Translations under genes and position numbers: made by a program | The notes under the pieces: generated by a model | What the model saw: the letters and a program-made list of their open reading frames with translations, nothing else | Databases searched by the model: none | Told to the model about the DNA's origin: nothing | Origin: Takakia lepidozioides | Lineage: Eukaryota; Plantae; Bryophyta | DNA length: 64,000 nucleotides | Assembly (NCBI GenBank): GCA_030704615.1 | Contig: CM060731.1 | Span: 37,076,001 to 37,140,000 of the forward strand | Direction of reading: 5' to 3' | Shown here: positions 11,836 to 64,000 of the stretch, one piece after another | Layout of the letters: each line of letters opens with the position of its first letter | How positions within the stretch are numbered: position 1 is the stretch's first letter

Positions 11836-11846
11836 GTCTCAACATA

Positions 11847-12044: not shown

Positions 12045-12528
12045 CGGTGTTGTGCGGGTACGGGTTTTGACCCGTTGTACCCGGCGGGTTAGGATCCGGG
12101 TTACCCGCACCCGCACCTGTGCTATCTCCAAAAACCCGGACCCTAACTTGGGTTCATTTCAGAAATGAACCCGGACCCGGATCCCATTAAACCCGCTACC
12201 CGCGGGCTAAGATAAATAAATAAAAATATATATATATGTAAAAACTGTATTTAAAAAATGAAAATTTGACACTTATCTGATATTTATTTACTTAAATCTG
12301 ACAGAAAAGAAATTATTTCTAATTAATCTCATTTTTCTAATATATTAATCAATTAAATAGGACCCGGATCCGAACCCATGAACCCGTTAATTTTTTCCAG
12401 CAACTACCCGGACCCGAATCCGGACCCGGATTTTCTGAATTTCAAAAACCTGGATCCGAACCCTCCAAAAAAAAACCCGAACCCGGACCCGGCGGGTTCC
12501 TTAAAAAGGCAGGACCCGCACAACACTG
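12045..12528. mobile_element. hAT MITE, 484 bp, same family as 10233-11835
   Basis: TIR CGGTGTTGTGCGGGT / ACCCGCACAACACTG; 8-bp TSD GTTTGAAC (12037-12044, 12529-12536); right arm nearly identical to 11610-11835. Confidence 0.92.
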
Positions 12529-29200: not shown

Positions 29201-32009
29201 TCAATTAGGCTGAGGGGCATATGCTTGCAGCTATATGTGAAAGGTGACTTCAAGAAAGATAGATAATAAGATGAGAAAGGGCGGGTGGGTATAGAAAATG
29301 GGAGTGTTGAACTTTGTAGGGGTGCAGGACGTGGCTCAAACGATGGAGACTTCAGAGTTAAACGGATGCCTGGAACTCGACCGATGGATGAGCTGTCACT
29401 TGCATTTGAGGGCTCAAGAAAGTCTGTGAATACAGCAATCGACGTAATTTGTGAATTTACAGGTATGAGTTTGACACCTCCCAACATGGAGTTGCAATAG
29501 ACTATGAACAGCTTCCATGTATGCCCTTAGTAATGTTCTGCTTTCTGGAGTTAAGCCAAACCTCGCTGATCTCTCCACGGGCGTAAGAGAGTCTGAGAGT
29601 TACTGCAGTGTGACCTCAGACAGTATATCCTATTTAAGGTGAAAACTCATGCTGAAGAACAAGAATGCAAATAAATATATGGTATTGGCTTCTAATCAAT
29701 TCACGCTGCCACATATGACAAAGTTTGAATATGCACCTATAAGTTATCTGATCTTGGCTACTGCTATGGGTGAGGGTTGCTTTGGTGGTATTTACATTGA
29801 GCTTAAGTTGTCCTTACTGGACGGGGCAGGCACCAAAGTGATATTCTGGGACATGAGAGACACCTTCATTGATGGCCTGTATAAGGTCAGCGTGGCTCAA
29901 GCACGTATGGAGAAAGTTGTTGGCGGCCTTGACCCGGTGAGAACTCAATTTATTCTTTCTGTTACAGCTCAAACATGTGGATTTCTCAGTTCTAGAGGGG
30001 CTGCAACGAGGGAGTCTCCCTGGTGTCCAGATGGTCATTCATCTTTTTTATTGTGGAAATTATAATACGCACAACTTCCCATACTTTTTACATTGTACTT
30101 GGTGACAGGTCCTAGGGCAACTCTGTGAAGTGATCGTGGAGCCTTTGCGAGACCGTGTTGTCCTTGGACTCCTGCAAGCTGCCTTGGTATGTATGCCACT
30201 CTTTATTATCCTTTCTGCAACCCAACCTTTTACATGAAACCAGTTTTGGCCGAAAATCAGAAAGACAGGAAAAATGAAAAAAAGTTCTAGGTCTTTGGCA
30301 GCAGAACAACACAAACAAAGGAATGAAATGAAATGAAATGGTACTTTATAACATCTGCGGAAAGCTCAGAGCTTATGAGACAAAATGGAAAAAACAAGAG
30401 AGGGGAAACAAAGCCAGAGCCAAAAAACAGCCCAAAAGCAACTACTGCTCCACGGGAACCTCAAACAGGTTATGGGATAAAAGAAGGCAGGACATGAAAT
30501 GAAATGACATGAAATGGTACTTTATAACATCTGCGGAAAGCTCAAAAGAAAGTGGGGCCCTTAACAACCAGCCCAACAACAACTAGTCAGGCATCAAGAG
30601 ATTCTCTAAGATGGAAAGCCTCATACAGGTATGCTGCCAAGAGGGAAAAGAAAAAGAATGAGCCATTGTATGCTGCCTGGAGAAATGAAATGGTACTTCA
30701 CTCCGCCGAAGGTCAAAGAGCTTATGGGACTAGAGAGCAAGAAACACAAAAAGAGAGAGGGGCTCCTCTACAAGCAGCCCAAACATAACTATTTCCCAAG
30801 GTATTGTCCAAGAGTCAAGACAAAAAGACAAAAGGTTCATAACATATTGCAGGCCCAAGGGCCATGGACAAAATAGAACAACAAGAATGAGAGCAAAAGA
30901 GAGTTGAGTGTGAGAAGAGTCATAAATGGATGTAACATGTGAAGGTTTTCACAAGTCCATGCTTGTTCTCTACCTTTTGTTAGCACAGAGAAACTTATGG
31001 GTTAGCTGTTTCTAGGATGGGCTGTTGCGTGTTCTACTAGATGGAGGGCCAACACGAGCCTTTGCACAGAGTGACTCCCAGATGCTCCAGGAAGATGTGA
31101 ATGTGCTCAAGGTTTCTCTCTTCTCTCTCACACAGAAGAGATAGGGTTCAATGCTATGGTGAAGGGTGTAAGGTATTTCAGACAAGCAGCAGCCTCCAGA
31201 AAATAAACTGAAGTTTGTTCTGAAGTTTTTTGTGTTTGGGATGTGCATTTATGTTGTTTTATAGAGATATGTGTACCCTTTTAGACGTTCCACACTTAAA
31301 CGGTTCAACATTGTACCTTCGCTTTATTCACAGCAAGCTTGGTCTACCTAGTATCTGATGCTCAAAGACTTTTTATTTGTGATATTTATCTTTTCAGGAC
31401 TTCTTCATAGCAGAAGGAGATGGGCTGCCAAGAGGAGTAGTGGAAAATGCTGCTGCCCCAGTTCAACAAATATTGAATCTATACAGCCTCGATGTGCGTG
31501 TCTCTATTCCACTATCCTTCTTTTAAGGCAAGGAAAGGATAAACACTCCAGAACAGCAAACATACAAGGGAGTGTTTGAGCAAACACCTCCCAGATGTGT
31601 TGAATACATGAAGGAATAAAATCACCACAAGATGTTTTCTTCAATTGCTGTGAGTAGGATTAGCAATATAACTATGGGGCTTCAGAGACCCAGCAGGCCT
31701 TTCTGCTTAGCTCTCATGTGTCATTTTGACTAGTTTCCACAGGATTGAAAAGTTGTCCTATGCTGCAACCAAACTGATCTCATGGTAGCACTGACAATGA
31801 CGCTAACTGTGCAATGGCATTGGCAGACACACGTAGTTATTGATAATTTCAAGCGAGCAAGCGAGCAGATGGTGGCGGGTGGAAACATGCAGAGACAAGG
31901 ATCTTCTCGCATTGCCACGGATGCTGACACTCTCCTCCGTGTTCTCTGCCACCGAGTGGACCAAGTTGCCTCAAAATTTCTGAAAAAACAGTACAAGCTA
32001 CCTGCTTAA
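17290..32009 (+). CDS. PATROL1: PATROL1 / unc-13 homolog (DUF810 + MUN domains). Exons: 17290-17330 (tentative start), 17394-17569, 17854-17918, 19159-19435, 20027-20093, 20480-20633, 22375-22542, 22900-23010, 23543-23752, 23913-24014, 24685-24915, 25678-25758, 26012-26104, 26368-26553, 26948-27106, 27221-27313, 27479-27550, 27862-27979, 28098-28276, 29050-29152, 29320-29462, 29830-29936, 30109-30186, 31016-31111, 31398-31493, 31827-32009
   Basis: Signature peptides ELLQRYRRDRRELLNF..KKVVMPPGAVSYDDIDLDQVSVDY, GLSDDDLRETSYEVL, EVCHWADGYHLNVRLYEKLL, KLCVRLNTLH, RVLLDGGPTRAF and DADTLLRVLCHR..ASKFLKKQYKLP. The first coding exon is uncertain. Confidence 0.93.
20795..21345 (-). mobile_element. 5'-truncated non-LTR retrotransposon (RTEX-like), ORF2 C-terminus and 3' tail
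   Basis: Peptide FRVGSRNLRIETGRW..REDRLCPEC..EIETEEHFFFYCPPY (CCHC), followed by 3' UTR GAGCTTTCCGCGGACGTTATAA and an (ATTTC)n tail. Confidence 0.8.
21870..22293 (-). mobile_element. 5'-truncated RTEX-like LINE copy with a 16-bp TSD
   Basis: HNLRIETGRW..RLCPAC peptide and (ATTTC)n tail; flanking direct repeat GAAAGAAACAAGGAAA at 21854-21869 and 22294-22309. Confidence 0.85.
28668..28885 (-). mobile_element. Stacked short 3' tails of the same RTEX-like LINE
   Basis: Two consecutive GAAATGAAATGG..ATAACGTCCGC.GAAAGCTCATAG units; the second extends into sequence nearly identical to 21900-22036. Confidence 0.75.
30321..30790 (-). mobile_element. Cluster of three short RTEX-like LINE 3' tails
   Basis: (GAAAT)n GGTACTTTATAACATCTGCGGAAAGCTC at ~30321 and ~30495, with a degenerate copy at ~30682. 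Confidence 0.7.
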
Positions 32010-33195
32010 GACTGCTGGGGAACTTGAGCGTTTCTCTTGATTGAACTGGAAGTCCCTTTCAAAGAATAGCCTTATACTTGTTTTGGTAGTTCTGAAGTTC
32101 CTCTGTGAGATCTCTGGTCAACAGTGGCAACACATTCTTCCATTAGTTGCTGAATTTTTCTCGAGGTTTAAGAGCCTGTTCCTGCGCTGCACTTCGCACA
32201 TGTTATTGTGTAACAGAAAGTCTGACATGACTGAATATATACTTACCATCAGCTGCTACCCTGAGCCTTACGGTAGTCTTACAGTACATTATAAATGATG
32301 TCCGATGCACAGAAGTGGTTGGTCAGCTTCAAGATCCTACAGAAGACACCTCTTCAGTTGCAGCTATACAATTATGCCCTTGCTTTATATATGCACAATG
32401 TTGACTAGGTCAGCTGGAATTTCATGTTTCAACTGTATACATATTGACTACCAGGAAAACTGCCTGATTCTCAGTACAAAATTCTTTTTCAGTATTCCTG
32501 GTGGAGTGGGGAACCCCATCAGCAGTATATGGTGCTTTAACCATCCAAAATCAGCTCTATGGCTTTCATTTTTTCCCTCTTGTCTTCAAATACTCTTTTC
32601 TTGTACTATTAGTGCCTATACTTGGCACATTGGTTTTGGGTCTTGCATACTTTTCCCACCCAAAACCTTGCTTGGGCAATTGACATGCCCAGGAGCTCTG
32701 AGATGTCCTTGGCATTTCCTGTCAACTGTCTAAGCATGTATTCACTTGAGAATTATCCTCTGCAAGGAATTGTAGCATTCAAACATTTTAGCATGATTCT
32801 TGGATCCCTCCTGAATCCCACAAACTCCTAGGACATATGGCCCGACTTCGCACCCAGAGACTCCAACAGATATAAAAAATTGTGATTACTCAAAAACATG
32901 TTAGCATTCAACATTTTGGTGGGAAACATCATACAGTTACACAATAAAAGAGTTCTCTTAACATTAGACAGGTACCATACTCGTAGAATGACATCATGTG
33001 AGGACATGGCATGAAATAACAAGCAAACTTGACAACAATGAAAAGATATTCAAAGATATTTTGAATGTTATGCATTCAAACCAGGTTTGGTATAGTGCAG
33101 TGTAGTTCCAGCTAAGAAAAGACAACTGTTCTGCAATTGAACGCAGCACGTGCCAATATGCCAAAATATTTCATGCCAGTTCAAGAGGCTGAGCT

Positions 33196-37040
<3,845 letters not shown>

Positions 37041-46725: not shown

Positions 46726-48043
46726 TAGGGCTTCGTGTTGCTCCGCACTACTAGTGACAAATTTTGAGAACTACGTTCAATTTTTCAATTTTTCACGCGT
46801 CATCCCTCGAGTGTTACATGCAGAGATCTCGTGTTTTGTTTTTTTCTGGAAGAAAAATGGGGGATTTGCATTTCAATGTTCAATTTTCACAAGTCGCATC
46901 AATCAATTACATTCACTATATGAACTTTCAAGCATCCACCATGGGATTGGATGTTGGTGGGTTAAGGCTACCTTTTGACAATATTCATGCAAGTTCGTCA
47001 AGGGCTCCATCCAAAGCCACACCACGAGAAACAAACAAACATGTCCAAATTTAAGATGTTGAACAAACTTGTGCACAAGACTGTCTTTCTCATCAAACTT
47101 ATTAAAATTCGTATTCACTTCCATCTTCAAGCTTTGGAGAAGCTCCACCCCCAAACCCAGAATTAGGACAGCACTCTGATTTCCATCCACTGTCACCAAA
47201 ATCAGTAAAAAATCACCCCTTCAGTCAAATGCAATTGTGGGCTGACTTCACACCTATGTCGGGTAGACCCCACTATCAGGAAATGGTGGATGGTCTGAGT
47301 AACTACACAGATCAATACATGAAGCAAAACACTTGCATCTTGCACTCAACAGTACATAATGGTCAGTACTCTCAGGAAATGGTGGATGGTCTGAGTAGCT
47401 ACACAATCCCGTCTTCAAAGTGATGGAAAGTAGTTAGCGTCCTATACAACAATTGCTCGGCCAACAATCTTTTGAGATGAATTTGGGAGGTGTGGCAGTC
47501 TCCACACACTCGAAGATTCTTGATGAGTTGTGTTGATCAGCCCAAAACCAATGGCCAGCTTTATTCCTCCACATCATGCAATAAAAAGTGTGTTAGGCAC
47601 ATACTCCGCCTCCTTCATCTGCTCAGACAATCTTCTTAGCTCAGCATGGATTTCCTTACTTCTTGGATGCAACTTATCATCTGATATAACCCCTGTGACC
47701 TTCATCATTCTTCTCAGCTTTGCAGTATCATCCCACCTGCCAGCTGCAGCATAGATGTTTGATATAGCAACACATAAGTCGCGGCATCCTGTTCATCCCA
47801 CTTAAGGATAAATGTTGTCACATATTCAGCCATCTCCACATTGTCATGGATTCTGCAGGCCCAAGCAAGGCCTTCCACACCACAACATCTGGATTGATTG
47901 GCATTTTATTAATCAGGTACCCTGCCTCATGTAGTTGTCCCGCACGTCCAGAAGGTCCACCATGCAGCCAAAGTGCTTTACTGGCGGGGTGACACCATGA
48001 TCTTTACTCAGGGAATCGAAGTAGCGTCTTCCGTCATTCAGTA
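46726..48043. repeat. Segmental duplication unit (continues at 59321 after the retrotransposon); paralogous to 62255-64000
   Basis: Colinear high similarity from TAGGGCTT..GTTGCTCCGCACTACTAG onward, through the PPR-DYW remnant. Confidence 0.9.
47400..48043 (-). pseudogene. PPR-DYW pseudogene copy 1, 3' part (E/E+/DYW remnants)
   Basis: Frameshifted KMPINPDVVVW..ACRIH, YAAAGRWDD, HPRSKEIHAEL..QMKEAEYVP, LAIGFGLI, NLRVCGDCH and FEDG. The terminal CSCxDYW is replaced by a local duplication. Confidence 0.85.
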
Positions 48044-48128
48044 TGTCGTGCACCTAAGCATCGTGCCACAACATACATCGCTGTCCACCATACATTCTAA
48101 GCACACAATCCTAGAAAGCTATGCCACA
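48044..48128 (-). repeat. Terminal repeat A (85 bp), outermost copy
   Basis: Direct repeat of 48496-48580 with 3 mismatches counted by eye. Confidence 0.92.
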
Positions 48129-48129
48129 A

Positions 48130-48493
48130 TGATAATGGAAGTGAACACACAATGGAAACACTCCACTCATGAATCCACTCAATCACATAAACTAAGTCAA
48201 GCCAAGGGCATCTTTGCTAAAGGAATCCACCCTACAAAGCCATCACCACACTCCCTCTCAATAGAGCTATGGAGGTTGGAGATGCTCATGGAGGCTCAAC
48301 TACAAGAAGATGAGCCCTCATCAACACTCACAAGGGGAAAACCCATCCCCATGTCCCAAGTGAGGTTTGACACCTCACTTGGCATGTGAGACCAAATGAA
48401 GTCCCAACACACAAAATACAAATATAAATATCCAAAATGTCCTAGTTAACTAGAAGTAGGTAATTCTAGTTAACCATGACTAAAACCATGACA
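48130..48493 (-). repeat. Terminal repeat B (364 bp), 3' copy
   Basis: Direct repeat of 58953-59320, with about 8 substitutions and one 4-bp indel counted by eye. Confidence 0.95.
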
Positions 48494-48495
48494 GC

Positions 48496-48580
48496 TATCG
48501 TGCACCTAAGCATCGTGCCACAACATACATAGTTGTCCACCATACATTCTAAGCACACAATCCTAGAAAGCTATGCCACA
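48496..48580 (-). repeat. Terminal repeat A' (85 bp), directly after the PPT
   Basis: Starts TGTGGCATAG on the minus strand, 2 nt after the PPT; separated from B by the dinucleotide GC. Confidence 0.92.
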
Positions 48581-48582
48581 AT

Positions 48583-48591
48583 CGCCCCCCT
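48583..48591 (-). other. Polypurine tract
   Basis: Minus strand reads AGGGGGGCG-AT-TGTGGC, about 250 nt downstream of the pol stop codon. Confidence 0.75.
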
Positions 48592-48838
48592 AGCTGGTGA
48601 TTAGGTCCCTCTAACACCGGATAGCTGACAAGTATCCATCTCAATAACATCATCGCTTGGTCTTCAATCGCACATGTCCCAGTATCTAAAGTCAATAGAT
48701 CAAGAGGCCGGGTGCAAAAGTAGCCCCATCGTTACTCGCCTTCCTGCAATCCATGATCTTCAATAGTATCCATGGCGTTGAGCTCCCATCAGCTAGACCT
48801 TGGATCACTTGTCAATTCCACCATTGTCATGCCCACTA

Positions 48839-50120
48839 CCTATGTCTAAGGCATCATGGACACAACCATTCTCCACTAGGAACCTCCTCAAGTGGTGGTA
48901 TCAAGCATCCCATGTGCCACCCCCTTAAGCATTTGTCACACACCAACATGGTCGCGGCACCACCAACATGCCCACATAGCATGCAACGCAACCCTACAGG
49001 TACCACTGCAAGGTTGGGATCTATCCTTCCATCCACATGTGGAAGGTGACATGGCGCACAATTGCGCACATGGTCCTTCCATACCATGCCATCTCGACCC
49101 TCCAGAATCAACACTCCTGAAGGCAACACCTCCCGGACCCTTAGAATCACACGCCCTACTGTGACATCCAAAGTCGTAGGCGCTGTCTGCTGCAGATACA
49201 CATAGTCCCCAGGGTGGAAACACCGAACACCTGGCCGATATCCCCCTCCACGTATAGTGACGTACCTCAATGTGTCTCGGTGTTGGGCAATAACAAGGTT
49301 CTCAAAAAGCCATAGGCATGACTCTCTTGAACAACTCTGCCTGCTGGGCACATGCTTGTATCCACACATCTGGATCATCAAGGTTGAGAACTACTGCAGT
49401 CTCCCTGCGAATAGATGCAGGCAAATCTGGCTCTCGGCCAAAGAGAAGGAAATAAGGCGAGAACGAGGCAAGTGATGCTTGTTTGCTAAACCTGTAGCCC
49501 ATGGCCAACCAAGGTAGCTGAAGGTCCCAATCTCCTAAATGTCCCTTCTGCAAGCCATACTTGCGCAAGCCTCGCTTGACTGTTTGTACAACCCTCTCTG
49601 CCAGGCCATCAGCCTCGGGATGATCCCGAGAAGTAGTGCGGTGATCTATCAAGGCTTGCTCACACAAAACCTAAAACTCCCCTAAGAACTCTCTCCCCTG
49701 GTCCGTGAGTACCTCGGATGGAGCACCAAATTGGCTAAGCACTCGATCTAAGAATGCATACGCAGCCCCCTCACTTGTCTTGTTAGGCAATGCCACCAGT
49801 TCAATCCACTTGGAGAAATGTTCCACCATCACTAACACATACTTGTTATGGCAAATCGTTAGTGGCAATGGGCCTGCGAAGTCAAGACTCCAACGATAGC
49901 CCAAACCCATAATGGGTAAAGGATGCAATTGTGGAGTAGGTGCATTGAAAGAAACTCGCACTCTATCACACACCATGCACCTTGCCACTAACTGTTGGAT
50001 ATCCGTGTGCATGCCCCGCCACCAGTATTATCCTTGCAGCAAACTATGAGTACGTCGCACCCCAAAATGTCCCAACTCCTCATGGGCATGGCGTACCAAT
50101 CGCGCTCGTTGTGTTGGATG
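48839..50120 (-). pseudogene. Integrase (HHCC, DDE core) with C-terminal PHD finger
   Basis: HEELGH..CMVC, SLDFAGP, TDQGREF and GLAERVVQTVK, then CMLC..MLVCDKC..WHMGC..GEWLCP*C (C4HC3). Stops at 50028, 49671 and 48854; frameshift near 49305. Confidence 0.93.
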
Positions 50121-50449
50121 AGGCACAATCCTCATTCGTCCATCCTCCCATACTCGGAGTAGGTGAGTCCCCTCCCACTTGAACCTCTTGGCTCGTTGTA
50201 GGATCCGATCTCTTTCCTTAGCAGTCACACTGACTGCTGTCTCTCTAGTACGAAGGTAGGCCAACACTGCTGCATCTTCATGCACATCCTTAGCACCACC
50301 AAACTCCTCACTGATCTCCGGATCGTCATGCACACCATCAACATGACCAATGCTATGGGATGGACTAGCTTGAGCTCCCATTGCTAGGATGCACAAAAAG
50401 GCAGATGCATGCCATCCTGGCACCATCTCCTCATCCATCTCACCATGCC

Positions 50450-51840
50450 ACCGGGCTCCAGTATCATCATGCTCGCTCGTGCATGGATTACGACTCAATC
50501 CATCTGCATCCCGATTGACAATACCGGCTTGATGCACCACCTGAAAGTCGTATTCTTGAAGCATAAGTGCCCACCGTGCAAGCTTCCCTGTAAGCTTGTC
50601 TAACTCCATCAACCACTTCAATGGTTGGTGATCCGTGACAAGGGTGAAGAGATTGCATAGAGGTAGCATCTGAAATGTGCCACTGCCCATACCGCAACTA
50701 GACACTCCCCTTCATAGGAACTATACTTCGCCTCGGCATCATTGTTTGAGCGGCTAGCATATGCCACTACAAACTCTCTTCCCTCATCATCCATCTGTGT
50801 GAGCACTACTCCAATCCCCAGCATACTCCAATCCGTATGTAGCTGGAAAGGCCGCCCCCGAATAGGCCGCCTCAGAATAGGTGCAGAAGTCAATCGAGCC
50901 TTGAGTTCCTCAAAGGCTTCTTCCTGCTCCTCCTCCCATTGCCACTCCTGACCCACCTTGGTCAACTTAGTAAGAGCCTTTGCAATGCTGCTAAATCCCT
51001 TGACAAACCGTCGATAGTAGTTTGCCAACCCCATGAAAGCACGAACTCTGCTAACATCTATGGGGCGTGGAATGCGTGCAATGGCCTCCACCTTCGTCTT
51101 TTGAACACCCAATCCTCCAGGGTGTATCATGTGGCCCAGATACTCAATCTGGTTGTGGAAGAACTTGCACTTCCCAGGTATTATTTCAACCCATGCGCTC
51201 TCAAGCGCTCAAACACCACCTGAAGGTGTCTCTCATGCTCCTCAACCATAGCACTAAAGACGATGATGTCATCAATGTAACACCGGGCAAAGTCTAGCCC
51301 CGCGAGAATCCTATCCATAACCCTCTGAAACTCTGCATGAGCATTCTTCAACCCAAATGGTAGGAAGTGCCATTGGTACAAGCAATCCTTCCCATGTTGG
51401 TCAATCCCCCATAATGTCGTCTTTTGCTTGTCAGCCTCTTTGATTGGCAACTGGTGGTAACCGGATCGCAAGTCCAATGTGCTAAACACCTTTGCATGCC
51501 CAATGGCATCAAAGATTTCCTCTGGAGTTGGCATGGCATATCTATCGGACTTAGTCTGACGATTCACAGGACGATAGTCCCCACACATCCTTCTTTCTGT
51601 CCAATTGCCATAGATATCCTTCTTAGCTGACATCACCGTTGTCGAGGCATACTCCCCGCCTGACAACTCCACCAATCCAACTTCGAACAACTCCATAGTC
51701 CGTGACTGGATCAATGACCTCTCCATATCACTATACCGGTAGGGCCTTCGAAAGATTGGCGTGTCACTTGCCAAATCAATACGAATCTCCTGACCCTTCA
51801 AACTCCCCAAATCCTTCAAACCGAAGGCAAAGCAATTTCT
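50450..51840 (-). pseudogene. Reverse transcriptase + RNase H (Gypsy type)
   Basis: RMCGDYR, LDLRSGYHQ, LPFGLKNA, YIDDIIV, FMGLANYYRRF, LHTDWS, YASR and TDHQPL; frameshifts near 51181 and 50655. Confidence 0.95.
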
Positions 51841-52349
51841 ATAAGCCCTTAGAAATCGTTGGATCCTCTGTCTCTCTCCTCCGGTGACTGTAGGTCCAAC
51901 ATCTGGTTCCCAATTGTCCTCAGTGACTGCAACCTTGGGTACATCAAGCTTGGGGGTAGGAGACGAATCCTTTGGTTGCTAGATAGTAACCTCTTGGGCC
52001 TTGTCTGCCCAATCTGACTGTGGCGTAGCCTCCACTTGCTCTGCCATAACCACCTTGAGAACATCCTCTGGGGAAGAAACATTCTCAACCTCTTCAAAAA
52101 CATTGGCCACCTTGGCCTCCAACTGATCCTCAGTGTATGGCTCTCCCCACTCCTCATATTGCTGCTTGAGAGATCCAAGGACTCTCTTTTTCCGCATCTC
52201 ATCCCACATCTGCCATGGGTGTTTGCACCCCATGATCCTGTGCTCGCCCCCACTCACTGCCTCAACCGTCCCGGTTGGCAGAGGGGATACAATACCAAAT
52301 GGGAGTGCAGAAGTAGCCACCATTGTCTGCAACCTCCATTGCTCAGCCA

Positions 52350-53334
52350 TGCACAAGCCAATGACCCATGTCAAGCAATTTAGATCCATTGCTTGACCCA
52401 ACACATGTCAGCGTGATGCCTCTGACAGAGCTGGCACAGCTGTAGTGCCCGTGGCAAATCCCATTGCCCGCTCTCGCTCATCTGCATTGGGCTCCACCAA
52501 TTGCTATAGCACACTGTCCCAAATCAACCCAGGACCATTGTCTCGAAAAGCATGAGACGAGGGAAAGCTCATGAGCGTAGGCAAGGCCGTACATGGCTGC
52601 CCCACTCAATTTACCACTGCTAGAGGTGGACGGTCATCATGTCGTACCCTCTGTGGTTGCCTCCCTTGGTCCAAAATGCCCTCAACTGTGAGATTGGGTG
52701 GCTGTTGAATGGAATCGTATGCTCTCTTTAGCAGCTCTGGTGGTGCAAGATTGGTCCACCACAATCGAGGTCGATGCGCTCGTGATCCCACCGCTGCTGC
52801 ATCCAATAGCACCGCCGATCCAATCCAAGACCGCACCCGATGCACACTGGCCATAACCCTGGCCCAAGAGTCCCCCATAAGAGAAACATTCTCCAAGATA
52901 TAGGCTAGAGGTTGCACTTGCCTCGTCTGCAAGTCACGCAACACTCTCAACATCTCCCAAAACAAATACGATCGTGCATCATGCAAGCCGTTCCCATGAC
53001 CTGCGGGAGAGTGTCCTTGGCAAGGCCATCCAACTATCACCAAGTCAATGACACCATGCCGGTCCAAATCATCCGCCCCCAGCAAGGTAATGTCTGCTGG
53101 CAAGGCCTTTTGATACCCTTGAATTGCTGAGAGAGGCAATAACTCAGGATACCGGTGTGTGAGCAAGGCGATGTGGCGCATAGAAATACGCCGAGCTATC
53201 TCATCCTTCTCCACATACAAGTACTTGTGTACTTTAATCCCAGCTTGCAATACTCCTGCAAGCCCAGTGCTCATGCCTCCAAATAGGTCTAGCAAACAAA
53301 TCCCTGAGTCAGGTGGTTGCCAGGTAATGGGCAC
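52350..53334 (-). pseudogene. DNMT3-type C5 cytosine DNA methyltransferase domain within pol
   Basis: Motif I LDLFGGMSTG, II YVEKD, IV DLVIVGWPCQG (Cys at 53022-53020), VI YILENV, VIII AHRPRLWWTNL, IX ERERAMGF and X R*HVLGQAM, in linear order and in frame with RT. In-frame stops at 52606, 52504 and 52408. Confidence 0.93.
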
Positions 53335-53583
53335 TGTAACTGAGGAAGTCCAAGTGTCACTGAACTCCCCTCACTCACCAATGGATATGCCTCCTGCCAT
53401 GCTTGGTGCACACACTCGCCTGCTACTCGATGCAAATTCCTAACTGTACCCCACAGTGGAATATGAACAGACACATGAGGAAGCAAATCAGCCTTGTATG
53501 CCAATTGTTTGTCCTCGTCAGGTGGTGGCCTATCATCTGCATGGCTATTGCCCTCCAAGAGCTCACCACCCCAAGCCACCACT

Positions 53584-54340
53584 TGTCGCGGCCCTTTGCC
53601 TTGAGGGCAGGGGGTCGAGACACATGAGGGGCTGCCCCTGTGGTGGGGGCAGCGGCAGCGATAGGTATGGGGGGGCTGAAGCACCCTTGAGTGCCCAAGG
53701 CACTCAAGGAGGCGGAGGCGCTCACTAGGTGGAGCCCCGCACACCGGGTTGCGGTGGGGGTGGCTCCACAAGGGGTGGTGGTAGCTTAGCGGGACTTAGT
53801 GGGGGTGGCATATGACTCACCATGGGGGCGGAGACCTCATGGTGGGAGTCGTGGGGAGTCTTGGGACTCATCACGGTCCAGAGGGGCCGTGGTGAGTGGG
53901 CCAAGACTCACCGCGACTCATCACCGGGAGTCAAGGGTTTTCGTGGTGGTTCGCCATAAAATGGCATGGCTGGTTGTGAAACCCCCACGGACAGCTACAG
54001 AAGTATATATAAGGGGAGTAGTGACCCCGAGAACGGTGCAAGCCCGTTGGTGACCAAAAACTAGTGAGTAAGCGAGCGAGCCGGAAAGCAACCAAAGAGT
54101 GGGGAGCTGTTCCGGACTGCCATCTACCAAAGGGAATTCTCCTAGGCCCAAATAGGTGGAGGGTTTAGTAGGAAGCGAAGGGGGGACTGTTATGTCCCGG
54201 TGAGCACCCGAAGCTCCAAGTTGGCCCGGGCGGCCACGTTGGGAGTCAGGCGTGCGCATCGGAGCGAGCAACTATGACTTGAAGGGGAGCTTACCGAAGT
54301 GAGGTGCGCGACACCACCCTTGCTATGATCCGCCGCTACA
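53584..54340 (+). mobile_element. Nested solo-LTR-like insertion (757 bp) between protease and methyltransferase
   Basis: Ends TGTCGCGGC ... GCCGCTACA (8/9 inverted match), TATA box GTATATATAAG at ~54004, GC/CpG-rich, interrupts the pol frame; flanks do not form a TSD. Confidence 0.7.
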
Positions 54341-54790
54341 TTCCCAATAAACCACACTGGGAGCAGTGCACGTCGACCATCCCCTGACTACCATTCCGGC
54401 CTGTAGGATGTCGTTTCCTCCCAAAAGTCCAAAGTAAAGCCCATCGGGTATAACACAGCCCCACCAACAAGCACATCATAAGACATCGTGTCCGTAACAA
54501 TGACTTTAGCTCTCATGACAGAGCCATCTGTAGGATGATTTGGCTACAATCGAATGAAGAGCTCATGGCGTGTAATCCCTCGTGCCTTCTCTAAACTGCC
54601 CAAAGATGTTTGAATTTGGAAAGGACAAGGCTCTAAATCCGCCTCTGTAAGGCCCAAGCTTGCAATTGCTGCTCTCCCCAACATCAATGGTTGTGCTTCC
54701 GAGTCCAACAAGACCCGCAGTGGCCTATACCTCCTCCCGGCTGGGCCACCCAACTGAAACACACCATCCTGATTGTCCATCAGGACTACC
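54341..54790 (-). pseudogene. Aspartic protease (retropepsin) domain
   Basis: VLLDSEAQPL (D-S-G site mutated to D-S-E) ... YDVLVGG; same frame as gag; stops at 54544 and ~54388. Confidence 0.85.
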
Positions 54791-55619
54791 CCAGGAGTCA
54801 CCATACTATGCTCAATGGCTGGTCTAGCTGGCAACTCCTGCAACCTTGTAGCTGCCGCTTGCCATGGCGCAGCTGTGGCTGTTTTCACCCTTGAATCCAA
54901 GGCATCCATGCACTACACCTGATCCACTATCCCCTTAGATAGTGCCGCATCACCATTCTCACAGAGTGCAGTTGCTAGTCTAAACACTGCAGCTAGCCGC
55001 ATCCCCGGCATTGCAATTGTCGTGGCAGAAAACAATGGAGCTTGGCAAATTGTCGTAGCCGCCCCCAACAATGTACTGGCTGCACCTTGCTTTGCAGTAC
55101 CACCCACTGGCATTTCCCGAGCCATACCAACTCTCCCCAATGACACTCGTGGCTATACTTCTGACACACTTGGGCGAGCGGGTGCCATCGATGGCTTAGT
55201 TGGCACTATCTCAGCCAATGTGAAAGACTGTGGAAGCCTTGTCTGCCGACTTGCTTCCCTTCTTTGTGGATCAAAATCCACATCCGCTCCTCTTGGCTCA
55301 GGAGCACGCGTTGTTGCTCGAGTGACAGCAGCTGCAGAGTCCACATGCAATGGTCCTGCAAGTGCGGCTCCACACATGAAGCCCATACCAATCTGGTCTT
55401 CCCTAGACATAGGAGGTTGTGCAGGTGGGGCTTGAACCTCAAGCCTTGGAGCTGGCGCAACATGAGTAGTGGCCATGGCAGCAAGACGTTGCTCTTAGTA
55501 GGCAAGTCTATCCACCATGCCTTGGTCATGACCTTGACCTTGACCCTGTGCTCCTTGGTTTTGGTTACGTCCTCCACCCCGACCTCTACCTCCTCTACCT
55601 CTCTGGACTACATTGTCTC

Positions 55620-56537
55620 GTCCTCGGCCACCATTGTTCCCTTGGAACTGGCCTGGCCGTAGCTCAGGATGCAAGTCATAACAATGGGCCTCTTCATGCC
55701 CATACTTGCCACAATGCCCACATTGTAGTTGTGTAGGTTGTGCCTATGCCGGCCCTAAGCCTCTTTCCGGGCAATCTCTCTTAACATGGGGTCCTCCACA
55801 ATCCCAACATGTCACACCCGACTGTTGTTGGCCTGAGAATGAAAGAAGTGACCTCTACGATTGAGATCCTCTCGGCCCTTCCCTGGGCTTCGCCTGAGCC
55901 CCCTTGTTGCCTTGAGCACGTTGGGGTAGTGGTTGTTGTTGGCTAGGAGCCCCACTTCGTTGTGTCTCCTGACCAAACCCCACCATGACCACTCGCTCCT
56001 CCACCATATTGAGCTCTATCCGTTCTGCCAGCAAAAACACATTTGCTAAGGTGGGTTGGTCCACTTGTAAGAGAGTTGCATCCCGCATCCTTCTCCTCAG
56101 CTCCTTGTCCAGGATCCCATACCAGAACTGGACTCCCTGAGCTTCTGTAACCCCTTGGGTTACGTTTATCAAGCGCCTCATGCGAGTGTAAGCCTCCCTC
56201 AAACTCTCGGCAGACTTTCGTTGGAACTCTTGTAAACTCCGCAATTTCTCCGTCCTTATCCCCTGGTAGTTTCTCCTTAACTCCTCGACGAACTCCACAA
56301 CTGGGTTAAAGGCAGGCACGGGTGTTGGTGCTGCAGCAGGAGATTGGGTGGACTTCCCAGCTCCTGTTCCACTTGACGTCCCACTGCTGTTTGCAGAAGT
56401 TGCCGGTGTAGCTACCGGTGTCACCTGCATCCACCGCAAACACTCATATGGTCTGCTAGTCATCAACCCAGCCTCACCATAAGAGAAACAATGGTGGTCT
56501 GACTGGTCATCACCCCAACCTCACCACCGACAGCATG
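55620..56537 (-). pseudogene. Gag with two zinc knuckles
   Basis: FQRKSAESLREAYTRMRRL (major-homology-like). Reading through stops gives CWDCGGPHVKRDC (55809-55771) and CGHCGKYGHEEAHC (55722-55681). Probable ATG at 56537 with a disrupted N-terminus. Confidence 0.85.
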
Positions 56538-56964
56538 CTCTAGGATTGGCCGGTGATCAAATCCGGACCAACCTCCTATGAAAACAAGCGCCCACACAAA
56601 GCTGACATGGCGCACAATCAAGCATGCAGGTGTGGGGGGGATCCAAACACAAGAAAATCAAGACAGTAACTCCCCCACAAAAAAAAAAAACACTCCACAG
56701 TGTCGCTCTTGCAAGGACATCCGAGCCCAAACCCGGACTGACTCTTGCCTCCACCTATGGAAAGGTTTTGGCCTACATAGAGGGTGGAAGACTACGAGGA
56801 AGAGAGACTAAAACAATTCCTAATCCCAGAATGCTCTCATCCCACTAGTCTCCCCCTATCTCTAAATGCTCTTGCTCATGACCAACAAACAGAACTACCT
56901 TCCAGGGTCTCTCAAATAATTCTCCACGAGCCCTCAAGATGTCTCTCAAACAATCAAAGGTCCC

Positions 56965-57290
56965 GAAAGCTTGCCAAATCTTGGCCCTCAAGGACCCCAA
57001 AAAGTCCTTCAGACAAGTTGCCAAAGACTCTTTAAGCTCGCCAAATATTAGCCTCCAAGGACCCCAAAATAGTCCTCCAAATAGCCCTCCAAAGCCTCCA
57101 AATGTTTGCCAAATATTGGTCTTCAAGGACCCCCAATGGTCCTCCACATAGCCTTCCAAAGGCTCCAAAAACTTGCCGCAACTTGGCCTTCAAGGACCGC
57201 AAAATAGTCCTCCAAATAGTCATCCAAATACCTCTTCAAGAGCTCTTCAAATGTCTTACAAAAGCTCCTCAAAGGACCCCCCAAAGATCC
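56965..57290. repeat. Degenerate ~66-69-bp tandem repeat (4-5 units) in the retrotransposon leader
   Basis: Recurring GCCAAAT.TTGGCC.TCAAGGACCCCAAAATAGTCCTCC core at ~56973, 57039, 57108 and 57176. Confidence 0.75.
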
Positions 57291-57327
57291 TCCAAAGGCA
57301 ATACTCCTCAAGATACACCCTAGATGT

Positions 57328-57548
57328 CATACACTTTCAATGAAAACGTATGGTAGGCAAAGTCTCTCCACTTGTATCCATACACTGTTCAAAAAAGTGT
57401 TTGGTGGGGCAGAGGGAGCCCATACACTGTTCACAAAAACGTATGTTGGGCAGAGGGGGCCCATACGCTGTTCACAAAAGTGTATGTTGGGTTCCATACC
57501 CTGTTCACAAAAGTGTATGGTGGGGCAGAGGGAGCCCATACACAGTTT
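57328..57548. repeat. Tandem array of ~33-50-bp units, each with an internal hairpin
   Basis: Consensus CCATACAC-TGTTCACAAAA-GTGTATGG-TGGGGCAGAGGGAG; about 5.5 copies. Confidence 0.85.
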
Positions 57549-58940
57549 CTTGAAGAATATGGAGACTAGGGTTTGTAGAGTATAGTAAGAAACACCTTCT
57601 TCATGGTATCTTCCCCCCTAACATGCATGCAAAATTGCATTATCTTACTTTGCAATGCATTCATCCCAAATTGACAAGTTCCTCTTGATCTCCTTGGAAC
57701 TCATAGCACGCTAATGTGCCCAATGACAAGCGCCAAGCCTTGCTTGAATTTGAATTTTGTATGCCATCTTCCATGTGTTTTCCCTTGCATGGGCTAGTCA
57801 CACACACTTCCACCTCTTGACCTAGGTGTTGTCTTCATTCATCATAATGTGTATCCACACCTCTATTCAAGAGCTCATCTTCTCAAACTTGAAGTCACAA
57901 GCCCTAAAGAGCATGCTCCACATAAGCATCACTTGCTTGATCAACCATCCACCACAAAACTTAAGCAAAAAGGGAATGAATACATGAGCTTCACCTTCCC
58001 CTTCCTTGTCTTGTCACATACTAATGTATGGTTGAAGTTGTTATGCATGCCGTGAGCCACAATCTCATTTCTTCATGAAGACCACCTCTAATGATCTCCC
58101 ATATGTGCTCCAAGCTCTTCAATACTCTAGGCTTGGTTTCACATCATCATGGATAGAATTCTCACCCACATGCTTCCCTTTGGAGTCATCTTGAGCTTCT
58201 TGATGCTCTCCAAGTGGTTGTTTTTTGTTGTCTTCAAGCCCTAGCCTATGTAGCTCCTTGGCTTTTCTTCCACAACATGCACCACCTCATACACAAGGAA
58301 TGAACTTGCTCACTTCACCTTCTAGCTCTCCTCAAGCTTGAATTGGAAGCCACACTTGGAAAGCATGCTCCACACATGCGCCACTTGCTTGGTCAATCAC
58401 TTGCTTCACCAAGAGCAATCCAAGAACTCATAGAACTAGCAAAAGCACTCCCTTCTAGCACCGCCTTTGCTTGCTTGTTTGTCAACCAAATAAAACCCCA
58501 CTTGACTTCATTTCACCATGGATAGAACAACCACTTCTTAGCTTCTCTTGAGCTACTTAATGCTCCTCAAGCTACCCTTGTTGTACTCCTTCTATTCCAA
58601 CCCAAGCATGTGCCGCTCTTTGGCTTCTCTTTCACACCATGAACAACTAGAGCTTGCTCTTGAAACCCTAGTGTCTATCTTCTCCACACACAAGACGTTT
58701 CTCTTGTGATGCAAGAGCTCTTTTCCAAACTCTCCACCTCTATAGAGCAAAGTCTTGTAACTCAAGAACTCTTTCCTTGAGCTCTCCACCTCTTTGATGC
58801 AATGCAAAAACACTCCTCCTTGCAACACATTGCAAGCCTTTGTGAGATACTTGAGCTTTCCTAGCTCTCTCACTCCTTGGTGTACACCAACACAAGTGCT
58901 AAAACTAATCCTTACACTCCGCACTCACAAGCATAAGGTG

Positions 58941-58952
58941 ATCTTCTTGTAG
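58941..58952 (-). other. Candidate self-priming primer-binding site
   Basis: CTACAAGAAGAT immediately follows repeat B on the minus strand and is the perfect complement of ATCTTCTTGTAG at 59138-59127 inside B; no tRNA-type TGG PBS at this position. Confidence 0.7.
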
Positions 58953-59320
58953 TGATAATGGAAGTGAACACACAATGGAAACACTCCACTCATGAATCCA
59001 CTCAATCATATAAACTAAGTCAAGCCAAGGGCACCTTTGCTAAAAGAATCCACCCTACAAAGCCCTCACCACACTCCCTCTCAATACCTAGAGCTATGGA
59101 GGTGGGAGAGGCTCATGGAGGCTCAACTACAAGAAGATGAGCCCTCCTCAACACTCACAAGGGGAAAACCCATCCCCATGTCCCAAGTAAGGTTTGACAC
59201 CTCACTTGGCATGTGAGACCAAATGAAGTCCCAACACACAAAATACAAATATAAATATCCAAAATGTCCTAGTTAACTAGAAGTAGGTAATTCTAGTTAA
59301 CCATGACTAAAACCATGACA
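58953..59320 (-). repeat. Terminal repeat B (368 bp), 5' copy
   Basis: Minus strand TGTCATGG ... CCATTATCA; direct repeat of 48130-48493. Confidence 0.95.
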
Positions 59321-61672
59321 AGTAGGCCAGTGTGGCTGCACGCAGAGAGAACATATATAAAGGTGATACTGTCCGGCTTCAAGCCATTCTTTTGCATTCC
59401 TTCAAATAGTTGCAGGACCTCTCTATGACAACCATGCTGGGCATATCCTGCGATCATTGCATTCCACGACACCACATTTCATTCAGCCACATTGTCAAAT
59501 ACTCCCTTTGCATCCTCAATGCATCCACATTTCGCATACATGTCCACCAGGGCAGTGTCCAGAATGACATTTGGTACAATTCCAGTTTTGATGATGTCAC
59601 CATGCACCATTTGTCATTTTCCAGGGCTGCCAGGCTTCCACACAAACGTGATGTGGTCGGACTTCACCCCTTCCCCATCATTTGCTCATAGGTCTCCAAG
59701 CCCTCCATCTCGCGCCCCTACTGTGCAGATCCTGCAAGCATGGCATTCCATGATACCAAAAATCTCGTTCAACCATACTATTGAACACTCCCTCCGCATC
59801 CTTGATGCACCCACATTTGGCATACATGTCCACGAGGGTATTGTTCAGAATCACATTTGGTACAATTCCAGCTTTGGCGATGCAACCATGCACCTCTTTG
59901 CTCTTTTCTAGGGCTGCCAGGCTTGCACACGAACTGCAAACGCACACAAATGTTATGTGGTCAGGCTTCACCCCTTCCCCGTCATTTGCTCATAGGTCTC
60001 CAAAGCCTTTATCCTGCACCCCTGCTGTGCACAGCCACTCCCTCCGTATCCTCGCTCCCCACATTTGGCATGTCCACGAGGGTATTGTTTAGAATCACAT
60101 CTGGTACTACAATTCCAGTTTTGGTGATGCAACCATGCACATCTTTGCCCTTCTCCAGGGCTGTCACCAGTGATTGGGGTTAGAAAAGTATTCATTCCAC
60201 AGCTTCTCCTCATCTCTGTTACGTGTTTTTGGCTGCTTTCCTATTATGAGGGAAAAGCAGGGTGAAATGTGCTGAAGAAGGTACCTTGATTAGCAGTGCC
60301 TAATTTTATCAATTGTGCTGCTGCTGCTGCGGCTTCCAGTTGACCATCTACCCATGCACGCTCGGGGAGGTCACTCCCTATCTAGTTTCCAGGCACGTGA
60401 GGCAAACATGCATTTTCTATGGGGGTATTAATTTTATTTTCTGAATTTTTGGCCACCCTATTATTACATAATGTTGTAATATGGCATATTTTCTTGTAAG
60501 CTATATTATTTATATTTTATAGCAGGTAACAAATATTGGGTACCCTATATTAACCTGAAAATAAATAAATAAAAACATTATGGGGTTGCCATCATTCCCC
60601 TCTCAATCTACGCTTCTTTACTGTCACGCCTTGCAAGCTTTTAAACCTGTGGGCCACAATGCTTGTACCACTGAGTGCACCACCATTTCTCTCTGCTTGT
60701 CTAGCACAATGCCGCCACGAATTGCAGCCGACAGGAAAGAGGGAAGCCTAGGGTTGTTGTGCACATGCATCTACGCCCTCTCCGCTGCATGTTCCGAACT
60801 GCTTGTCACTGAACGACACATGTCCCTTTAATTTCTCTCCACCCTATATTAGTTTTAATATTTTTTGGAAATACGTCTTTATTTTGGACCCTATTTTAAT
60901 TTAAATGTGGTGCCGCCAATATATTGGCACCCTATAGTATTTCTAAATGTATTCTAAATTTTATTTTCTCAGAACTTTCGGCACCCTATAATTTTTTGCA
61001 CGTCAAGTGGTAATATTTGGAAGTGACCTCCCCTTGCATGCAGGTTTCTTGTAGCTAATGGTTCACAGAGAATCACAGGTACTCTTGTGCTTGCAATCTG
61101 GCCCCCTTGGATGAATCTGGACCCACACTCTATCCCTGCTCCTTTAGCTATCCATGCCTCTACACAAATCATGCATACATCCTTGTCTTGCTCTAGGAAA
61201 CACAGAACTCAACTCATTACACTAGTTCCTATGCTAAATTGCATCTGCTACTCTCTAAATTGCATCTGCTTCTCTCTGTAGTCCAACAGGCATTCACCTT
61301 TTTGTCTCCATTGTCCCACCATTGACTGGGGTCGAAAAAGTGTTCATTCCAAAGCTTCTCCTCTGTTTCCCGCTGCCATATCGGCAGTAATTTGTCAAAG
61401 TCACTCCAAACGATCACAGATCCACCCAACAAGCTAACTCACAGAATTCAATATGCATCTCAAGGCAAAGTCTGATGAGAGGGCAAAACAGGCTGAAATA
61501 GGTTGAAGAAGATGCCCTCATCACATTGTCTTGTGTCATGACCCAGGAGACCATCAACCCAAAATGACCTCTTGTGTGTGTTGCTTGTGTCCGTAGTCAG
61601 ATAATATCGGATTGGTCTGTGACACGGTGCAGCTAAGCAGGCAGAGATTGAAACACGACCTCGTAAGACCAA
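59321..61672 (-). pseudogene. PPR-DYW pseudogene copy 1, 5' part: putative transit peptide, two PDF-like motifs and PLS-class PPR repeats
   Basis: [37 protein letters not shown] and KPDHITFVCV with many frameshifts; upstream EEKLWNEHFFDPSQWWDN (~61365-61310) and EEKLWNEYFSNPNHW (~60211-60167). The 5' boundary is tentative. Confidence 0.75.
60355..61042. mobile_element. AT-rich MITE-like element
   Basis: 24-bp imperfect TIR TGCACGCTCGGGGAGGTCACTCCC / GGAAGTGACCTCCCCTTGCATGCA; no clear TSD. Confidence 0.6.
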
Positions 61673-61770: not shown

Positions 61771-61974
61771 TCACATCGTACAGTCTCCAATGCCTCCATC
61801 CCACATCCATGCTTGGCAAACCCTCAGCCATTCTGTTGAACACTGCCATCTTTCATGCTCACACACTTCGCATACATGTCCACCAGAGTAGTGTCCAAAA
61901 TGATGGTTGGCACGATTCCAGCTTTCAATGGCAGCATGGACCTCTCTAGAGCTTGAAATCCAGCCTTCTTGCAT
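61771..61974 (-). pseudogene. Isolated degenerate PPR fragment
   Basis: Frameshifted EVHAAI..GIVPTIILDTTLVDMYAKC. Confidence 0.65.
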
Positions 61975-62899
61975 GAATCTGAATGTAACTTATTCATTCC
62001 AGAGCTTGTCCTCGTCTCTGTTATCTGTGATAAAGGTTCTACATGTAGGATCTCCGTCTGATCGCTGTGTGAAACCTCTTCGCGCTCAAGGACGCGGGGG
62101 CATTGTCAACCAATCCCCACGCACATCTCTCCCGGTTATTTTCTGGTTACTTTTGGGCAGCCCGGGCAGATTCCAAAGAAATTGACGACGATGATGTGGC
62201 TACGATTCCTGCTCTACGCCAAACTAGCTTCCGACCTTCAGTCGTCGCTAGAACTAGGGCTTGGCGTTGCTCCGCACTACTAGCGACGAATTCTGAGAAC
62301 TATGTTCAATTTTAACAAAAAAAGGGGTGGGTCATCCCCTCGGTGTTACAAGCAGAGATCCCTTGTTTTGTTCTTTTTTGGGAAAAAAATGGCGGATCTG
62401 CATTTCAATGTTCAATTTTCACAAGCCGCATCAATCAATAACAACATACCCATATACCCTTACATTCACTATATGAACTTTCAAGCATCCACCATGGGAT
62501 TGGATGTTGGTGGGTTCAGGCTACCTTTTGACATATTCATGCATGTTCGTCAAGGGCTCCATCCAAAGCCACACCACGAGAAACAAACAAACATGTCCAA
62601 ATTTAAGATGCTGAACAAACTTCTGCCCCTCTCATCAAGCTCATTAAAATTCGTATTCATTTCCATCTTCAAGCTTTGGAGAAGCTCCACCACCCAAACC
62701 CAGACTAGGACAGCACTCTAATTTCCATCCACTGTCACCAGAATCAGTAAAAAATCACCCCTTCAGGCAAGTGCAATTGTGGGCTGACTTCCCACCTATG
62801 TCGGGTAGACCCCACTATCAGGAAATGGTGGATGGTCTGAGTAGCTACACAGATCAATGAATGAAGCAAGACACTAGCATCTTTCCAAGAAACATCCTT

Positions 62900-64000
62900 T
62901 CACCAGTAATCAGCACAAGAACAAATCCCATCTTCAAAGTGGTGGAAAGTAGTCAGCGTCCATACAACAATTGCTCGGCCAACAATCACACACTCGAAGA
63001 TTCTTGATGAGTCGTGCTGATCAGCCCAAACCAACGGCTAGCTTCTCACTGTGGTGGCAAAGAGAAAATTCCTTTCCTCCACATCATGCAATAAAAAGCG
63101 TGTGTACATACCCCGCCTCCTTCATCTGCCCAGACAATCTTCTCAGCTCAGCATCGATTTCCTTAATTCTGGGATGCAACTTGTCATCTGGCTCCTTTCT
63201 AACCCCTCTGACCTTCATCATTCTTCTCACCTTTGCAGTATCATCCCACCTGCCAGCTGCAGCATAGATGTTTGATATAGCAACACATAAGTCGCGGCAT
63301 CCTGTTCATCCCACTTGAGGATAGATGTTGCCACACATTCAGCCATCTCCACATTGCCATGGATTCTGCAGGCACCAAGCAAGGCCTTCCACACCACAAC
63401 ATCTGGATTGATTGGCATTTTATTAATCAGGGCCACTGCCTCATGTAGTTGTCTCGCACGCCAGAAGGTCCACCATGCAGCCAAAGTGCTTTACTGGCGG
63501 GGTGACACCATGATCTTGACTCAGGGAATCGAAGTAGCGTCTTCCTCATTCAGTAGGACAGTGTGGCTGCACGCAGAGAGAACACATATAAAGGTGATAC
63601 TGTCCGGCTTCAAGCCGTTCTTTTGCATTCCTTCAAATAGTTGCAGGACCTCCCTATGACAACCATGCTGGGCATATCCTGCGATCATCGCATTCCACGA
63701 CACCACATTTTATTCAGCCACATTGTCAAATACTCCCTTTGCATCCTCAACGCACCCACATTTCGCATACATGTCCACCAGGGCAGTGTCCAGAATGACA
63801 TTTGGTACAATTCCAGCTTTGATGATGTCACCATGCACCCTTTGCCCATTTCCAGGGCTGCCAGGCTTGCACAAGCATTGCAAATGCACACAAACGTGAT
63901 GTGGTTGGGCTTCACCCCTTCCCCCATCATTCCAAGGCCTCCATCCCACGCCCTTGCTGTGCATATCCTACAAGCATGGCGTTCCATGACACCAAATCTC
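62900..64000 (-). pseudogene. PPR-DYW pseudogene copy 2 (5' end outside the window)
   Basis: PPR repeats, E domain VVWKALLGACRIHGNVE, CHHSEKLA and terminal HHFEDGICSCADYW* (stop 62902-62900); several frameshifts and a deleted PG box. Confidence 0.9.

Follow-up and report, generated by a model that had tools for sequence, protein, structure and literature searches.

The 64,000-nucleotide stretch of Takakia lepidozioides DNA analysed here (assembly GCA_030704615.1, contig CM060731.1, positions 37,076,001 to 37,140,000; hereafter the window) harbours a Gypsy retrotransposon whose coding region includes a cytosine methyltransferase (DNMT). This raises the question whether the enzyme is a genuine part of the element, with which of the element's products it is made, and on which DNA it would act. 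What retrotransposon-borne DNMTs do has been an open question since 2018, and the known cases all come from algae in which experiments are difficult.

Overall structure of the insertion

The element occupies 11,277 bp on the minus strand (48044..59320), with TG...CA termini and a 4-bp target-site duplication, TACT, read on the same strand at the 5' (59321..59324) and 3' (48040..48043) element ends, as expected for a Ty3/Gypsy LTR retrotransposon. The corresponding empty site, joining 48039 to 59321, is seen in same-organism contigs from three of four sequencing runs. The host site is a PPR-DYW pseudogene; decayed PPR-DYW copies, likewise on the minus strand, are found at 47400-48040, 59325-60200 and 61800-64000, including a duplication whose copies lie about 15.5 kb apart, and many paralogous contigs map to these stretches.

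The Ty3/Gypsy order of gag, protease, reverse transcriptase (RT), RNase H and integrase is present, all on the minus strand. Gag (55600..56420) is decayed, with two zinc-knuckle-like motifs and a weak match to PF03732 (E 0.007, below the cut-off), and the decayed aspartic protease (54400..54744), recognised by homology to relatives, lies in the gag frame. The gag-protease part is 45% identical to the Marchantia ORF1, and the protease domains PF13650/PF13975 are present in some relatives. Downstream of the methyltransferase, the translation continues through an acidic linker (51982..52335), the putative C-terminus of ORF1, into RT and RNase H (50620..51900; PF00078, PF17919 and PF17917, with an RVT_1 match of E 8.7e-22 in the window frame and a frame change near 51180). 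The zinc-binding region and core of the integrase follow (49305..50150; PF17921 and PF00665, and tblastn with the relative P0337), and a PHD finger (48857..48997; PF00628, E 2e-09) ends pol. Gag, protease, DNMT and RT share one common frame. Eight element segments scanned with Pfam gave no tyrosine recombinase match, an rve integrase being found instead, and neither an adenine methyltransferase nor a chromodomain was detected by Pfam in the element segments.

With its many stops and frame changes, the window copy is a dead element. Between protease and DNMT it is broken by two frame changes and by a nested 730-bp solo LTR of an unrelated family on the plus strand (53584..54313; TGTCGCG...CGCGACA, 5-bp duplication with one mismatch), so that protease-DNMT continuity rests on two related contigs, L001 and L083, and on Marchantia relatives. 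In these the domain indeed lies between protease and RT, as claimed in an earlier note made from the sequence, but the window copy itself does not show the continuity with the protease. The family of the nested LTR is apparently very abundant. Contig depth peaks at this LTR, and loose ends that start with TGGTATCAGAGC lie at 54314; other copies of it run on into TGGTATCAGAGC, which we take to be a tRNA-Met primer site. CpG depletion is not stronger in the element (0.46-0.52) than in the remaining window (0.42) and is thus uninformative on self-methylation.

Elsewhere in the window, a PATROL1-like host gene lies on the plus strand at about 17300-30100, multi-exon with long, repeat-filled introns; one exon matches PF25761, the single Pfam match among 26 other window ORFs, and the other exons were read by eye. 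Together with the PPR-DYW sequence next to the element, this PATROL1-like exon speaks for a land-plant host. At 16970-34120 there is an interspersed repeat, whose ends are of the GAAATGAAATGAAATGG type and which may be a SINE or MITE, in at least eight copies on one strand and four on the other. Clusters of CCGGACCCG/GAACCGG short repeats at about 9400-12550 resemble the subterminal repeats of DNA transposons, and a minus-strand fragment with a GAIDGSH motif (about 12900-13300) is presumably a PIF/Harbinger transposase.

The methyltransferase domain

When stops are read as X, the frame that runs on the minus strand between 53370 and 51184 encodes an intronless, complete C5 cytosine methyltransferase that passes via the acidic linker into RT, in agreement with the earlier note. 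The domain (52336..53298, minus strand), identified by motifs, Pfam, PDB and fold, contains its motifs in linear order, with motif I at 53286, the PC of motif IV at 53028, the ENV of motif VI at 52893, the RxR of motif VIII at 52776, motif IX at 52473 and motif X at 52401. The window translation matches PF00145 (E 6.3e-12, 46 bits against a cut-off of 22), which bears out the identification of the enzyme by reading through three stops. As motifs I to X are linear, the circular permutation of the plant DRM type is absent, and the exclusion of a DRM enzyme stands.

In-frame stops of the DNMT-RT frame are found at 52606-08, 52504-06, 52408-10 and 51979-81. At each of the first three, which fall within the domain, 95-99% of the depth differs from the window in same-organism contigs of runs X1 and X2, which represent one sample with variants listed at a >60% threshold (40 of 42). 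These three stops are decay private to this copy.

The best 29 of 37 matches in a PDB sequence search are DNMT3A/B/C, and the predicted structure (pLDDT 93, 45-sequence alignment) is closest to DNMT3A (E 1.3e-19, TM 0.67/0.83). However, human DNMT3A scores 46-48 bits against the window domain and is outscored by several bacterial and phage C5 methyltransferases (62-65 bits), so that what supports the DNMT3 label is the fold match, together with the tree published for the Klebsormidium relative. The earlier assignment as DNMT3-like is kept in this form: the domain is predicted to resemble DNMT3, with some prokaryotic enzymes scoring equal or above. Atlas matches of the domain were to generic DNA-methylase clusters only.

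A conserved stop codon downstream of the methyltransferase

The stop at 51979 had been counted as one more lesion, a reading that we abandon. Together with the following codons it reads TAG-CAA-CCA (51973..51981, minus strand), which conforms to UAG-CAR-YYA, the established type I readthrough signal of tobamoviruses, sufficient in plants and with reported rates in viruses between a few percent and about 20% (PMC3542737, PMC2754532). Of 11 scorable in-frame stops of the window, this one alone is followed by the context, the chance of CAR-YYA behind any given stop being 0.0015. Among the variants listed (40 of 42, threshold 60%) there is no majority variant at 51973-81, a well-covered bin of the same-organism contigs. 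At the matching place, L001, a metagenome contig with 64% DNMT identity to the window, has TAG-CAA-CCA as one of two stops in 2,200 codons, the second being without readthrough context. L083 (52% identity) has TAG-CAA-TCA there, the sole such motif in its 9,285 bp, where it divides an open 1162-residue Gag-protease-DNMT ORF1 from an open 1047-residue RT-RNase H-integrase-PHD ORF2 in one frame. These three elements, to which Marchantia does not belong, are those in which the context was read at the DNA level.

The ends of the encoded proteins were compared for the 138 relatives of at least 47% identity that reach motif X. Ninety-one stop 70-170 residues past motif X, 40 end before 70 residues (decay or contig ends), three end later without RT, and four continue into RT, all of these being NCBI gene models with a shortened linker; the counts are given without a null distribution. 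Several relatives' proteins share terminal residues with L083 ORF1. We note that three proteins of Klebsormidium type (P0145, P0136 and P0353) all terminate right past motif X, which hints at an ORF boundary.

Judged by its context and by the relatives that share it, the 51979 stop is a conserved element and not decay. Its conservation and context place the DNMT in the Gag-protease ORF, ahead of RT and integrase. ORF1 is thus Gag-protease-DNMT, and production of RT-RNase H-integrase-PHD likely needs readthrough. Recoding signals in LTR retrotransposons have reportedly been treated by Gao et al. in 2003. No such stop is present in the Closterium-type members, which have DNMT and RT in one open frame, or in P0037, P0042 and P0337, which are likewise single open frames, and in the chlorophyte-type L084 the ORFs overlap and the DNMT is located within pol; a layout giving the enzyme at high stoichiometry is therefore not universal in the family.

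Distribution and evolution of the family

Among 199 retrieved relatives, the DNMT lies past the protease or ahead of RT in 58 and past RT/RNase H or directly ahead of integrase in 85, the remainder being two Copia-type and 54 DNMT-only entries. With other retroelement domains carried by 145 of the 199, the domain is integral to the element, as the earlier note held, but not simply part of Pol, since the conserved stop puts it in the Gag-protease ORF. Nor is it a loose or recent one-off capture of a host gene, in agreement with the earlier view: among 151 full-length domains, the catalytic cysteine is kept in 149, the motif VI glutamate in all and each motif VIII arginine in 149.

The named relatives comprise the liverworts Marchantia polymorpha (up to 70% over the whole domain), M. 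paleacea, Riccia and Calypogeia, the mosses Sphagnum fallax and S. troendelagicum, and the algae Closterium, Klebsormidium nitens (GAQ93235.1), Cymbomonas and Scenedesmus. No vascular plant is among the named matches, most retrieved matches carrying no species name. In chlorophyte relatives, the domain is positioned between RNase H and integrase. The Marchantia models Mp4g09160, Mp8g17980, Mp6g11220 and Mp2g26090 (P0004, P0006, P0009 and P0020) are element coding region labelled as hypothetical host genes. In Tetraselmis striata, Copia-type polyproteins (P0051-P0053 and P0349) have a distantly related DNMT that precedes integrase and RT.

The viral collection yielded no relative with a Marchantia query, and the best 80 loci of a profile search of it were all distant C5 methyltransferases (24-34% identity) with no family member among them. 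Among the 80 loci listed in a search of prokaryote genomes, L083 and L084 are the only family members. L083:1-9285, L084:1-10362 and P0221 are eukaryote-type retrotransposon sequence in prokaryote genome bins, a placement that likely reflects mis-binning rather than transfer.

In a tree of 61 DNMT sequences, the window falls together with liverwort, Sphagnum and L001 sequences (support 0.99), and 23 sequences of the integrase-adjacent type form a group of their own (0.86); these are FastTree supports, which are low along the backbone (0.21-0.33 at two nodes). A tree of 44 RT sequences splits the two architectures (88 and 87), with the long branch P0049 sitting loosely with the first; this separation indicates that the DNMT domain has travelled with its RT. 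Between the window and L001, the DNMT has a dN of 0.29 and a dS of about 2.7, which is near saturation, giving a dN/dS of about 0.11. Two close decayed copies, L001 and L002, have a dN/dS of 0.75, as expected from decay after insertion.

The K. nitens protein GAQ93235.1 has a protease-DNMT arrangement and is 36% identical to the window over 328 residues (E 1e-56), scoring 186 bits against at most 65 bits for prokaryotic matches. From its species and architecture, it is very likely a copy of the published element KnitGypsy-Dnmt3. The earlier note had invoked Klebsormidium as a precedent, which it is, but not a mere one, as its protein belongs to the same family.

Terminal repeats and priming signals

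In the standard Ty3/Gypsy plan, two identical LTRs form the ends and the purine tract lies beside the right one; here the ends are A and B-A-B, in the layout A1...tract-B1-A2-B2, all on the minus strand. At the left end, A1 (368 bp, 58953..59320) differs from A2 (364 bp, 48130..48493) by eight mismatches in 364 aligned positions and one 4-nt indel. B1 (86 bp, 48496..48581) equals B2 (86 bp, 48044..48129) at 82 of 84 aligned bases, and B2 abuts A2 directly to form the right end. The full A...B-A-B layout is known from the window copy alone, L083 being a collapsed circular assembly in which a second B is not displayable. The polypurine tract (48582..48594; GCTAGGGGGG, common to the window and L083) abuts B1, and L084 has a G-run ahead of B; the tract adjoins B, not A, in all three. 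A reading of A1 and A2 as ordinary LTRs was rejected, the tract being 88 bp from A2 and the target duplication outside B2.

Directly past A1, 12 nt form a putative primer-binding site of self-priming type (58941..58952), with no tRNA-type site, and are perfectly complementary to a predicted self-primer inside A1 (59127..59138), the likely RNA 5' end. This complement is the top match of 2,280 leader offsets tested, and L083 has the same arrangement with letters changed and pairing kept. The signals fit Tf1-type self-priming, and as in the self-priming Ty3/Gypsy elements of the Tf1/Sushi type and the plant Tcn1 clade, the primer site is complementary to part of the left repeat; a chromodomain is present in Tcn1 elements, whereas the window element has a PHD finger (PMC6317226, PMC5006619).

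At the B/A junction, a palindrome (48490..48499, minus strand) corresponds to the two ends of the element, except that CA and TG are separated by two additional bases. This GACA-GC-TGTC sequence has one mismatch in the window and is perfect in L083 (GACAGCTGTC); the terminal sequence of L084 is CACGACAGCTG. PAT and Ngaro are split-direct-repeat elements of the DIRS order with A...B-A-B ends. Unlike such elements, which employ a tyrosine recombinase, the window element combines a DDE integrase with TG...CA termini and a target duplication of 4 bp.

Discussion

Based on the architecture of the window copy and comparisons to its relatives, we lean towards the following account. The element is a dead copy of a Gypsy retrotransposon family with a conserved stop between a Gag-protease-DNMT ORF and a pol that is likely made by readthrough alone; the enzyme would be packaged at capsid-protein levels and would methylate element cDNA. 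Ribosomes would mostly terminate past Gag-protease-DNMT, and a minority, which may by the viral range amount to a few percent to about 20%, would read on to RT and integrase, giving DNMT at capsid stoichiometry and in excess over RT. The protease would free the DNMT within the particle, beside the nascent cDNA, and this proximity makes the cDNA or the fresh insertion the most likely substrate, a view to which we give somewhat more credence than doubt. The insertion would then arrive pre-marked by methylation, as self-limitation or camouflage, and the PHD finger would steer insertion by chromatin. With less confidence, we propose that reverse transcription from the observed signals yields a B-A...B-A product, whose ends are joined and which the integrase opens at the internal CA-GC-TG palindrome; a cut past CA on both palindrome strands would give A...B-A-B with TG...CA ends and the loss of two bases, matching the observed structure.

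KnitGypsy-Dnmt3 was described as having been acquired within the K. nitens lineage, with the DNMT in the Pol ORF (de Mendoza et al. 2018, PMC5890265). As there, the window element combines Gypsy domains with an intronless, non-permuted DNMT3-like domain that keeps its catalytic residues, and with DIRS-like A-coding-B-A-B repeats (PMC5890265, legends of Fig. 4c and Fig. 1e). The land-plant host and the relatives across bryophytes, Closterium and chlorophytes set it apart from that account, from whose main text the readthrough-type stop past the DNMT, the PHD finger, self-priming and the palindrome signals are also absent; its main supplement, outside our coverage, may show ORF boundaries. Its table gives nine DNMT genes for Physcomitrella and ten for Selaginella, and the supplementary files searched make no mention of Marchantia or Sphagnum (PMC5890265). 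Later literature on retrotransposon DNMTs, in the parts accessible, gives the host range merely as 'streptophytes'. In the literature covered, which largely excludes subscription journals, we found neither the readthrough nor the occurrence of this family in land plants or in chlorophytes described. The element is a relative of KnitGypsy-Dnmt3 whose range includes land plants and which has an expression signal that had not been noted before.

Retrotransposon-encoded cytosine methyltransferases are likewise found in SymbioDIRS-Dnmt3 and SymbioLINE-Dnmt, which belong to other retrotransposon classes (PMC5890265), and in the EpiLTRs of Cymbomonas and Euglena, whose pol ends in a DNMT4-related domain (bioRxiv 10.64898/2026.05.21.726589). 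As far as these sources describe them, the window element differs in having a DDE integrase without an adenine methyltransferase or chromodomain detected by Pfam. Its stop resembles tobamovirus type I readthrough, in which an in-frame stop sets an abundant N-terminal product against a polymerase extension (PMC3542737, PMC2754532), and the same ratio-setting principle applies to the SIRE1 pol/env and the Tca2 and MuLV gag/pol stops (PMC2194720). However, in the known cases of the latter source the stop is positioned directly past gag or ahead of env, whereas here it follows Gag, protease and methyltransferase.

The enzyme from the same two ORFs may instead act in the nucleus, on existing element copies or host chromatin, as dosage control. 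A bulk supply of enzyme would exceed the need of one cDNA per particle, and self-limitation and effects on the host genome were raised by de Mendoza et al. (PMC5890265). Nevertheless, the DNMT is fused to Gag and protease here and to RT or integrase elsewhere, i.e. it forms part of a particle-bound polyprotein in every architecture seen, and we consider nuclear action unlikely.

Similarly improbable, in our estimate, is that the domain is retained for a function other than DNA methylation, namely non-catalytic nucleic-acid binding, covalent capping of cDNA or action on an RNA substrate. In yeast, no methylation was obtained with the Klebsormidium domain, a result that its authors call inconclusive, human DNMT3B being likewise inactive, and SymbioDIRS-Dnmt3 of Symbiodinium performed de novo CG methylation in the same host (PMC5890265). 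In the window family, the proline ahead of the catalytic cysteine is replaced by glutamate in 67 of 151 members; however, the SAM-binding glycine of motif I (144/151) is retained together with the cysteine, ENV and RxR.

Alternatively, the stop may be genuine and the CAR-YYA context incidental, with RT and integrase produced through splicing or from an internal promoter. NCBI gene models of Marchantia, Riccia and Sphagnum fuse DNMT to RT by omitting the stop-bearing stretch, and Candida Tca2 has a gag-pol stop without local readthrough (PMC2194720). Yet the omitted stretches vary between models, as expected of gene predictors dodging a stop, and in each of the three DNAs the hexamer obeys the consensus, its second codon being CCA or TCA, and the two ORFs remain in frame; we regard this alternative as quite improbable. 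That the domain is a recent one-off host DNMT3 capture decaying neutrally, with the 51979 stop as a further lesion, is hardly credible: the window copy is dead, but the family spans liverworts to chlorophytes, is intronless, has a low dN relative to dS and shares the stop context, and in L083 both ORFs are open around the same stop.

Returning to the packaged-enzyme account, the stop past the methyltransferase predicts enzyme near 1:1 with Gag and exceeding RT and integrase, and its conserved placement suggests selection on expression level. The conserved internal palindrome is a concrete candidate explanation for the DIRS-like ends of these integrase elements. Tentatively, and with more doubt than confidence, we extend the account to one ancient green-plant Gypsy lineage, from chlorophytes to mosses and liverworts, that would have kept an active methyltransferase throughout while shifting its position in the polyprotein. 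The branch containing land plants would have adopted the leaky stop, loading at capsid stoichiometry, methylation of cDNA before insertion, and integration from an end-joined, palindrome-cut intermediate.

Marchantia has open Gag-protease-DNMT frames that are annotated as genes of the host; enzyme activity, readthrough and methylation of the cDNA can thus be tested directly there, and these frames may confound methyltransferase inventories and mutants. If the lineage is indeed single and ancient and its enzyme active, Marchantia 'genes' of the Mp4g09160 type would supply a model plant with de novo methyltransferase from a source that has gone unrecognised.
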